Sequence record: PP925828.1
From: Escherichia phage SpoonbillGilly
Length of the DNA: 64,000 nucleotides
Strand: one strand, 5' to 3'
A program made the translations under genes and the position numbers. The notes beneath the pieces are model-generated. The model saw nothing but the letters and a program-made list of their open reading frames with translations, searched no databases and was not told the DNA's origin. Every line of letters begins with the position of its first letter. Positions within the stretch are counted from its first letter, which is position 1. This document shows, in pieces, positions 60,708 through 62,839 of this stretch.

Positions 60708-62489
60708 TTAGGTTAGGCGTTGAACTGTTACACGTAGTCTTGGCAAGAAAACAGCTGCCGCTTCTGCAGCGTGAATGATAACACCCAACTCAACGTTGCC
60801 ATTACCAAGGTTTTTAATAGTATAAATATATCCGTTCCTACGGAAAGCAAACTCATCTGGCCTACTAGCCCAAGTTTGTGTATAACTATAGGAAGTTGTA
60901 CTGTGATAAGGTACTAGATATCCAGGTGGCAGAGTAAGAATCTGATGGAATACACCATCACCAGCTGTATAACTTTGTTGACGTCTACCTTGTACCTGCC
61001 AAGCGCTACCGCCGTAAGTACGCACAGGCATTCCAGCAGTATTAAGATTACCCATAATAACTTCAGTAGTTAATATAACGGTAGAGTGAGCATTAGGTAA
61101 TCCTAACCAAACAGTGGCCAAAGGTGTATAGAAGTCACCAGCACCAGGGTAGGAAGGAGTTATATCATCACCAACATAAGTACTTGCAACGTTGCCTGGA
61201 AATAACCTGAGGGGTACAGTACTAGGACTCCACACAGGTCCATGTTCATTACCGATGGAGTTGGTATTAGTATCTACATACCATTGTTTACCTACACCAA
61301 ATTTATATAGGCTAATTTGGGAAGCTGCACCCCCATAGTTAACGGGCGACCACAACCCACCATTACTAGAGCCGATAAATTCACATCGTGCAGTATTATC
61401 ACCAAAAACTCCGGTATACGCAGCGTTATTACCAACATACTCCATATCAGGGCGATAGCCTAAGTTTCCAAAGGCATTCTGGTTAATGAATTTATATCCT
61501 GTATTTGGTAAACTAACACCTTTAATAGTAAAGTTAGATGGAGATATTAGGATATCTGAACCGGTAAATGGATTACCAGAAACTCCCATACTACCATTAG
61601 AATAGCGCAGATTTAGCACATACCAAATAACCTTAGTTGGCGTAACGTTATACCAGTCCTGTACATATACCTTTCTAGCAGACTGAGCAGCCATATTAGA
61701 AGTAGAACCTCTACAAACATATATTTTTTCTGGGTATGCAGGAGATTGGTAAAGAACGTTTACGTTATCTGGTAGTACGCCTTTTTTACCTGCGAAGCCA
61801 CGAATATTAGAACTACAAACGTAAAACCAATCATGGCCTCTACCAGCAGAACCAATAGGCGCCTGCCAGTTAGGTTCCCAATAATCTGCGTTACCACCAT
61901 CTAAAGGAACAGTAGAGACACCAGTTGGAAAACCCATAAGACTCCAGGCTCTGGCAATGGCTTCACCAGCAGAAACACCACCAGGTCTAAAGATCTGGAA
62001 ACCAGAGGACTGTAGTAAACTGCCTCCAGAACCTTGCCGAGCAATAGATTCCTCATGACCAAGACCACCATTATAGATATAGGTACCATGAGCTAAACTA
62101 TCACCGATCGCAAAAGCAGATGTTACAGATAATTCAGCACCAGCACGTGGTGGGTCTTCAAAGAATGATAAGAACTGGCCAACCTGAGATTGAGTACCAT
62201 TGAGGAATCCTCTATGGGTACCATTAATCTCAATAGCAGTTAATATAACTCTACCCGGATCATTGGATTTAATATTTATAATATCCCAAGGCATCTGAGT
62301 AACAAAGTATCCATTACCTGCATTACCTAGAGCCGCTTCATAAGTCCCATCAACCAGGACGAAAGGCATATCTGAGTGAAAGATACTATTAGTATTTGGA
62401 GAGTAGTGTTCACCAGTATCACCACCATTAGCAGCGTTTAGCGATAATACAGTTTTACCATCACTAAATTTTCCTGCGAAAAAACTCAT
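60708..62489 (-). CDS. Receptor-binding protein (T5 pb5/Oad-like), diverged
   Basis: 593 aa; N-terminus MSFFAGKF... resembles what I recall of T5 pb5; divergent arrangement with llp. Confidence 0.75.
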
Positions 62490-62514
62490 ACAATCTCCTT
62501 CTTTAAAAATGTAT

Positions 62515-62543
62515 TTGCTTAGATCCCTCTATTTTGCTATAAT
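62515..62543 (+). promoter_or_regulatory. T5-type early promoter for llp (TTGCTT-17-TATAAT)
   Basis: -35 62515-62520, -10 62538-62543, leader ATATTTATAAATTAAACAGAGGAAC. Confidence 0.7.
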
Positions 62544-62572
62544 ATATTTATAAATTAAACAGAGGAACGATT

Positions 62573-62839
62573 ATGAAAAAGTTACTAGCTATCGTAGTTG
62601 CAGCAGTAGTGTTGACGGGTTGTGTACCAGCTCCCGAGCCATTTTGTAAGGCATATGTGAAGTCTTATGGTCATGTTGGTGAAGAACACTATGCTTTAGA
62701 TATTCGAGAAGCACGTACTGTGGGCTACCGATTCCCTAAAACTCAGTTACGCACTAAGTTTGGGTGGTGGGATTTGTCACAGTTTGATCTCAAATATGGC
62801 GATTGCAAATTTAAACTAGAACAATCTGGTCACTTGTAA
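62573..62839 (+). CDS. llp: Lytic-conversion lipoprotein (Llp-like receptor-blocking lipoprotein)
   Basis: 88 aa; signal peptide with lipobox LTGC (MKKLLAIVVAAVVLTGC); divergent from RBP gene as in T5. Confidence 0.8.
   Translation: MKKLLAIVVAAVVLTGCVPAPEPFCKAYVKSYGHVGEEHYALDIREARTVGYRFPKTQLRTKFGWWDLSQFDLKYGDCKFKLEQSGHL

Follow-up and report, generated by a model that had tools for sequence, protein, structure and literature searches.

Which outer-membrane receptor is recognized by the tail-tip protein of Escherichia phage SpoonbillGilly, and does the small lipoprotein encoded divergently beside it block that same receptor? The question is raised by a gene pair in a 64,000-nucleotide (nt) stretch of this phage's DNA (record PP925828.1), the whole of which is referred to below as the window. 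One open reading frame (ORF) of the pair encodes a receptor-binding protein (RBP) of 593 amino acids (aa), and the other encodes an 88-aa lipoprotein, Llp. An earlier reading made from the letters of the window (the sequence-only reading) had described the pair as diverged from the RBP pb5 and the Llp of phage T5, which act on FhuA, and had proposed a different receptor, with BtuB and FepA given as examples. Our analysis indicates that the pair very probably consists of a BtuB-binding RBP and a BtuB-blocking lipoprotein.

The assignment of the receptor is carried by the RBP. The ORF begins MSFFAGKF and ends QRLT, and its product matched phrog_4815, 'receptor binding tail protein', over residues 1–593 (PHROGs, E = 1.6e-281); a Pfam scan of the RBP returned no match. 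When the protein was used as a tblastn query against 50,697 phage records, 534 records were matched, and many of the matches were labelled 'receptor-binding tail protein' or 'oad'. For the RBP and Llp alike, counterparts at 99–100% identity are encoded by many phages, and neither ORF can be a product of chance. The records of T5, BF23, TrudiRoth, Stitch, S114 and SPC35 were fetched and identities were obtained from global alignments, including those with the T5 and BF23 proteins that the sequence-only reading had suggested. The RBP was 99.8% identical to that of Stitch, and it grouped with the BtuB-dependent phages: identities were 99.2% to TrudiRoth (5 of 593 residues differ), 98.1% to S114, 82.9% to SPC35 and 76% to Hrs of BF23 (595 aa), as against about 30% of the alignment length, or 35% of aligned pairs, for T5 pb5. 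The RBPs of the Markadamsvirinae form three clusters (BtuB, FepA and FhuA) that predict the terminal receptor, and nearly all of these phages target BtuB (PMC8594841). TrudiRoth (Bas30) is the reference BtuB phage, and its dependency, established with a btuB knockout, was fully complemented (S9 Fig in PMC8594841). S114 and S133 are listed among the BtuB-binding phages (PMC12980165), and BF23 is the classical BtuB phage (PMC10644984); the Llp of S133 is identical to that of the window. Because the RBP is nearly identical to that of an experimentally characterized phage, BtuB can be assigned as its receptor by comparison of sequences, and we consider this assignment very secure. The expectation of a receptor other than FhuA was therefore borne out, and of the two examples offered it is BtuB that is indicated.

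RBPs that are 100% identical to that of the window were found in three records, Obesumbacterium phage Ob_P (PQ664488), Klebsiella phage 150049 (OP045498) and Salmonella phage KFSSM (PQ041629). The hosts concerned span three genera (Obesumbacterium proteus, Klebsiella pneumoniae and Salmonella), a pattern that fits a conserved terminal receptor, BtuB, combined with lateral tail fibres and O-antigen as the determinants of host range.

Comparison with T5 pb5, the only protein in the PDB matched by the RBP (8b14_B and 8a8c_B, E = 5e-46), shows that the two are true but distant homologues. The HMMER match consisted of two blocks, leaving residues 196–273 unaligned. Identity to pb5 was 50% in the first 50 residues, only 20–24% over alignment columns 101–300, and recovered in part to 30–42% around columns 350–500; these regional values make the earlier description of a protein that shares the pb5 N-terminus and then diverges an accurate one. 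The length of pb5, given in that reading as about 640 aa, is indeed 640 aa, so that the RBP is the shorter of the two. A truncated RBP was considered as the reason for the shorter length and ruled out, since 593–595 aa is the family length. Residues are named for only two of the four pb5 loops that insert into FhuA, Gln115 in loop L1 and Phe170 in loop L2 (PMC9586334), and both positions fall inside the lowest-identity stretch of our alignment (columns about 100–300). The divergence from pb5 is located where receptor specificity would be expected.

The 88-aa ORF, which begins MKKLLAIVVAAVVLTGC, encodes a lipoprotein with the lipobox LTGC, in agreement with the sequence-only reading. The signal peptide MKKLLAIVVAAVVLTG ends directly before the lipobox Cys, and Val occupies position +2; the mature protein would begin with Cys17 in acylated form. 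Lipoproteins with a residue other than Asp at +2 are sorted to the outer membrane, and the Val at this position predicts such sorting for Llp. The sole Pfam match was LPAM_1 over residues 1–17, which at 18.6 bits lies just below the Pfam cut-off of 20, and a match to phrog_1119, 'Cor superinfection exclusion protein', was obtained at E = 1.2e-23. Dozens of phages encode a protein 100% identical to Llp, under the labels 'receptor-blocking protein', 'superinfection exclusion protein' or 'Cor superinfection exclusion protein'. The Llp proteins of Stitch, TrudiRoth and S114 are each 100% identical to that of the window; identity was 69% to SPC35 and 68% to BF23 (60 of 88 positions, ungapped, both proteins being 88 aa), with the C-terminal 30 residues nearly identical to those of BF23 Llp. 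Identity to T5 Llp was 18–21%, which is indistinguishable from noise.

A search for the Llp family among 5.8 billion proteins yielded only about 10 clusters, all of 87–89 aa. In an alignment of 11 family sequences the invariant residues included G16, C17, C25 and C78, and the C-terminal third, GWWDLSQFDLKYGDCKFKLE, was nearly invariant. The Llp records fell into two bands of identity, one at >=95% (191 records) and the other at 60–80% (204 records), the latter corresponding to the BF23/SPC35 subtype. By these identities the Llp of the window represents a second, Epseptimavirus, subtype within the BF23-type family.

Evidence for the blocking function comes from the BF23 subtype. BF23 Llp blocks BtuB, and leaky expression of llp from DT57C, whose product is almost identical to BF23 Llp, caused BF23-type phages to plate more than 100-fold less efficiently and had no effect on T5 (PMC4728585). 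Given the 68% identity to BF23 Llp and the constant pairing with BtuB-type RBPs, we infer that the Epseptimavirus subtype blocks BtuB as BF23 Llp does. The proposal that Llp is the matching receptor blocker of the pair is thus upheld, with its 100% identity to the proteins of TrudiRoth, Stitch and S114 as further support. A mismatched pair, a T5-like RBP with a BtuB-type Llp, has been reported for phage Cit2; the identity figures given in that paper appear to be internally inconsistent (PMC12980165).

Taken together, these data suggest the following course of events. The RBP, a monomer located at the end of the central tail fibre, would attach irreversibly to BtuB, the TonB-dependent transporter of vitamin B12, and thereby trigger DNA ejection. 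Soon after infection a dedicated sigma-70 promoter would drive synthesis of Llp, which would be exported, receive its lipid at Cys17 and become anchored in the outer membrane. In that position it would inactivate BtuB as a phage receptor; superinfection would be prevented and progeny would not be lost on the debris of lysed cells. At the molecular level, Llp may bind the periplasmic face or the plug of BtuB and close the extracellular loops by reverse allostery, as T5 Llp does on FhuA. In the latter case EL7 and EL8 are the loops that turn inward and come to lie over the pb5 site, and it has been argued that such 'jamming' is possibly general for TonB-dependent transporters (PMC9586334). Blocking by T5 Llp is lost with FhuA I9P. 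No structure of BtuB with Hrs or with Llp was found in the copy of the PDB used or in the searchable literature.

How closely Llp resembles T5 Llp bears on the last of these steps. No sequence homology between the mature domains was detectable by phmmer, global alignment or hhalign. A phmmer search of the PDB with Llp returned nothing at E <= 10, though the T5 Llp chains 8a60_B and 7qjf_A were present in the database. When the Llp family alignment was compared with T5 Llp by hhalign, residues 1–29 alone were aligned, namely the signal peptide, the lipobox and the first Cys; the 93% probability reported by the program was for this reason rejected as a sign of homology between the mature domains. 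An AlphaFold2 model built from the 11-sequence alignment had a mean predicted local distance difference test (pLDDT) score of 82.7, exceeding 90 over most of the mature domain, and displayed five strands and a C-terminal helix; a Foldseek search of the PDB with this model gave no significant match. T5 Llp is lipidated at Cys16 and has a disulfide between Cys26 and Cys73 (Cys11 and Cys58 of the mature protein) (PMC9586334). Cys25 and Cys78 of Llp are placed like this pair and may form a putative disulfide. Since the comparisons with T5 Llp revealed a parallel architecture but no significant match, we classify Llp as a member of the BF23-type family, which in function is an analogue of T5 Llp and Cor and may be remotely homologous to them.

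Three points weigh against the scheme as a whole. The periplasmic reverse-allostery step is an extrapolation from FhuA to BtuB. The shared match to phrog_1119 is not independent evidence of kinship between Llp and T5 Llp or Cor, because PHROGs are built by remote-homology clustering. Finally, the literature yielded no experiment on SpoonbillGilly itself or on the Epseptimavirus subtype of Llp. In one alternative Llp does block BtuB but is an independent invention and not a diverged T5 Llp/Cor protein; it might, for instance, act at the cell surface or contact BtuB at a different site. We regard this alternative as unlikely, if a serious one; it is to a similar degree doubtful that a BtuB-type Llp may inactivate BtuB by a route structurally unlike the periplasmic plug-jamming of FhuA by T5 Llp. 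The third point could be taken in favor of a lipoprotein with another role altogether, for instance in lysis or membrane remodelling, as could the fact that the Pfam match is to a generic lipid-attachment site only and is below the cut-off. However, Llp is identical over its full length at 68% of positions to a protein whose blocking activity was tested, and in the TrudiRoth, Stitch, BF23, S114 and SPC35 records llp always adjoins a BtuB-type RBP gene; a role other than receptor blocking is very improbable.

The remaining alternatives concern the receptor. If the pair were a T5-type module, its RBP would bind FhuA and its lipoprotein would block FhuA. Such a reading can appeal to the pb5 N-terminus and overall homology of the RBP, to a gene order and promoter that are as in T5, and to the RefSeq/PHROG label 'Cor superinfection exclusion protein', a name derived from FhuA blockers. 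It is scarcely credible in view of the low identity to pb5 (only about 30%), the lack of detectable similarity between Llp and T5 Llp, the 99.2% identity of the RBP to that of a btuB-requiring phage and the observation that a BF23-type Llp leaves T5 unaffected. A FepA cluster does exist among T5-like RBPs, and FepA was named as an option in the sequence-only reading. An RBP directed at FepA, like those of H8 and S124, or at a further TonB-dependent transporter, together with a matching blocker, is nevertheless equally far-fetched: the RBP groups with BtuB phages at 76–99% identity and the FepA binders constitute a separate cluster in the published tree. Both FhuA and FepA were accordingly rejected as receptors on the identities of the RBP to BtuB phages (76–99%) and to T5 (about 30%), and a BtuB-directed pair is the interpretation that we retain. 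Essential identity to the T5 proteins, which by the terms of the sequence-only reading would have spoken against a different receptor, was not observed.

The two genes are separated by a control region that aligns with the spacers of T5, BF23, SPC35 and S114, and divergent promoters are annotated at this spacer in the T5, BF23 and S114 records. The llp promoter is made up of a -35 element TTGCTT (62515–62520), a 17-nt spacer (62521–62537) and a -10 element TATAAT (62538–62543); the spacer ends in TGc (62535–62537), which gives an extended -10 sequence, TGcTATAAT. A consensus promoter scan of 62300..63000 did not call this promoter, because its -35 hexamer matches at only 3 of 6 positions, and no terminator after llp was found in the scan. 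The T5 spacer keeps the promoter elements even though the genes that border it in T5 have no relationship, or only a remote one, to those of the window. According to its title, a 1994 paper by Decker et al. reportedly describes the early expression of T5 Llp during infection. On the strength of that title and of the T5 annotation, the promoter of the window would likewise function early, and the earlier claim that llp has its own early promoter is supported to this extent. The promoter core AAAAAT..TTGCTT..TATAAT..ATAAATT is common to T5 and the BtuB-type phages, and recombination at this spacer may allow modules to be swapped.

The coordinates of the features are collected in the table below. 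The genes for the terminase subunits and the portal lie directly downstream of the RBP gene, a gap of 10 nt separating the RBP stop from terS. Comparison of the records revealed the same terS/RBP/llp layout in T5, BF23, Stitch and SPC35, and the terminase-adjacent gene order has been given as a general rule (PMC8594841). Over 8 kb, the window DNA was 97–99% identical to Epseptimavirus genomes. The best explanation is that the window derives from a T5-like siphovirus, an Epseptimavirus of the Stitch/TrudiRoth/S114 type, and that the RBP and llp genes constitute its host-recognition module.

Features of the RBP/llp locus and its neighbors (positions in the window)
Feature	Position	Strand	Basis
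Portal	57130..58347
Terminase large subunit, terL	58899..60215
Terminase small subunit, terS	60215..60697	-	phrog_3802, E = 2.2e-90
Receptor-binding tail-tip protein (pb5/Oad/Hrs family, BtuB-type), 593 aa	60708..62489	-	ORF listing, phrog_4815 and identities
Divergent control region between the RBP and llp genes, 83 bp	62490..62572	.	aligns with T5, BF23, SPC35 and S114 spacers
RBP Shine-Dalgarno AAGGAG, 5 nt before ATG	62495..62500	-	read from sequence; Stitch annotates a ribosome-binding site at the equivalent place
llp promoter, sigma-70-type	62515..62543	+	read by eye; conserved across five phages (window, T5, BF23, SPC35, S114)
llp Shine-Dalgarno GAGG, 7 nt before ATG	62562..62565	+	read from sequence
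Putative receptor-blocking (lytic conversion/superinfection exclusion) lipoprotein, BF23/BtuB type, 88-aa precursor	62573..62839	+	ORF, phrog_1119 and identities
Lipobox L14-T15-G16-C17	62612..62623	+	sequence; G16 and C17 invariant in 11-sequence family alignment
Cys25 codon (mature Cys9), putative disulfide partner of Cys78	62645..62647	+	invariant in family alignment
Cys78 codon (mature Cys62), putative disulfide partner of Cys25	62804..62806	+	invariant in family alignment

Several ORFs in the vicinity deserve a brief description. The product of an ORF between the portal and terL genes (58347..58871, - strand) contains the HNH-like Cys/His motif CEICGC...HHYH...CVHHHQLLH. In the BF23 record the corresponding gene is called 'nicking endonuclease', and in those of T5, Stitch and SPC35 it is 'hypothetical'. 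From its TTG start the ORF of the window would encode 174 aa, and its product is probably 145 aa long, the length given in these four records. Just 3' of llp, at 62914..63228 (+ strand), a 104-aa acidic ORF matched phrog_16810, a family of unknown function (E = 2e-69). At this position Stitch has a 315-bp gene, gp162, and S114 a 267-bp ORF, and only much smaller ORFs are present in TrudiRoth, T5 and BF23; it is a variable accessory region ahead of the terminal repeat. A series of small ORFs at 63116..63837 (+ strand), some of them with hydrophobic stretches, is placed like the single-transmembrane proteins T5.159–162 that follow llp in T5.

With regard to prevalence, the BtuB-type Llp family was present in 397 phage records and the T5/FhuA-type Llp in 34, and the RBP/Llp pair of the window is the commonest type among T5-like phages. 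The word 'diverged' in the sequence-only reading therefore holds relative to T5 and not otherwise. The novelty that it implied did not survive, as the pair is already annotated and has been characterized in the literature; the BtuB-type RBP/Llp pair is already known, deposited and published. The identities of the RBPs are spread and mosaic while the BtuB-type Llp proteins separate cleanly into two bands, a contrast that suggests recombination inside the RBP/Llp module. Such recombination was reportedly proposed by Golomidova et al.

Published work has already relied on the BtuB-type module for the prediction of receptor specificity. In practical terms, btuB mutants are expected to be resistant, and infected cells are expected to exclude other BtuB-dependent T5-like phages.

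Among known systems, the closest are TrudiRoth (bas30_0206 and bas30_0205), Stitch (gp160 and gp161) and S114, which encode essentially the same two proteins in the same gene order and at the same lengths. The RBPs of these phages differ from that of the window by 1–11 substitutions, with no functional difference known; those of S114 cluster at residues 250–300 and in the C-terminal 40 residues (551–593). BF23 Hrs and Llp, the latter with near-identical counterparts in SPC35 and DT57C, are full-length homologues of similar size (595 versus 593 aa and 88 versus 88 aa), and BF23 shares with the window pair the divergent arrangement, the promoter and, by our assignment, the receptor BtuB. Hrs and Llp of BF23 are the classical module for binding and blocking BtuB, reportedly described by Mondigler et al. 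(2006). Both BF23 and SPC35 belong to Tequintavirus, whereas the relatives of the window are members of Epseptimavirus; their Llp subtypes are distinct, and it is the BF23/DT57C subtype that has been assayed.

The pb5 (Oad)/Llp pair of T5 is an FhuA module with solved structures (8b14, 8a8c, 8a60 and 7qjf). It has the same module logic and gene position. Its Llp is a small lipoprotein of the outer membrane whose termini are constrained by a Cys pair, an architecture that the Llp of the window would share. It differs in its receptor, FhuA as opposed to BtuB, and in its RBP, that of the window being 47 aa shorter and least similar in the region of the receptor-inserting loops; the mature domains of the two Llp proteins have no detectable sequence similarity and, in the predicted model, only marginal similarity of fold. 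The Cor lipoproteins of the T1, phi80 and N15 type, which are likewise small and located in the outer membrane, prevent superinfection through inactivation of a TonB-dependent transporter. They act on FhuA, however, and are only about 20% identical even to T5 Llp; where RefSeq records call llp 'Cor', the name denotes the family and says nothing about the receptor.

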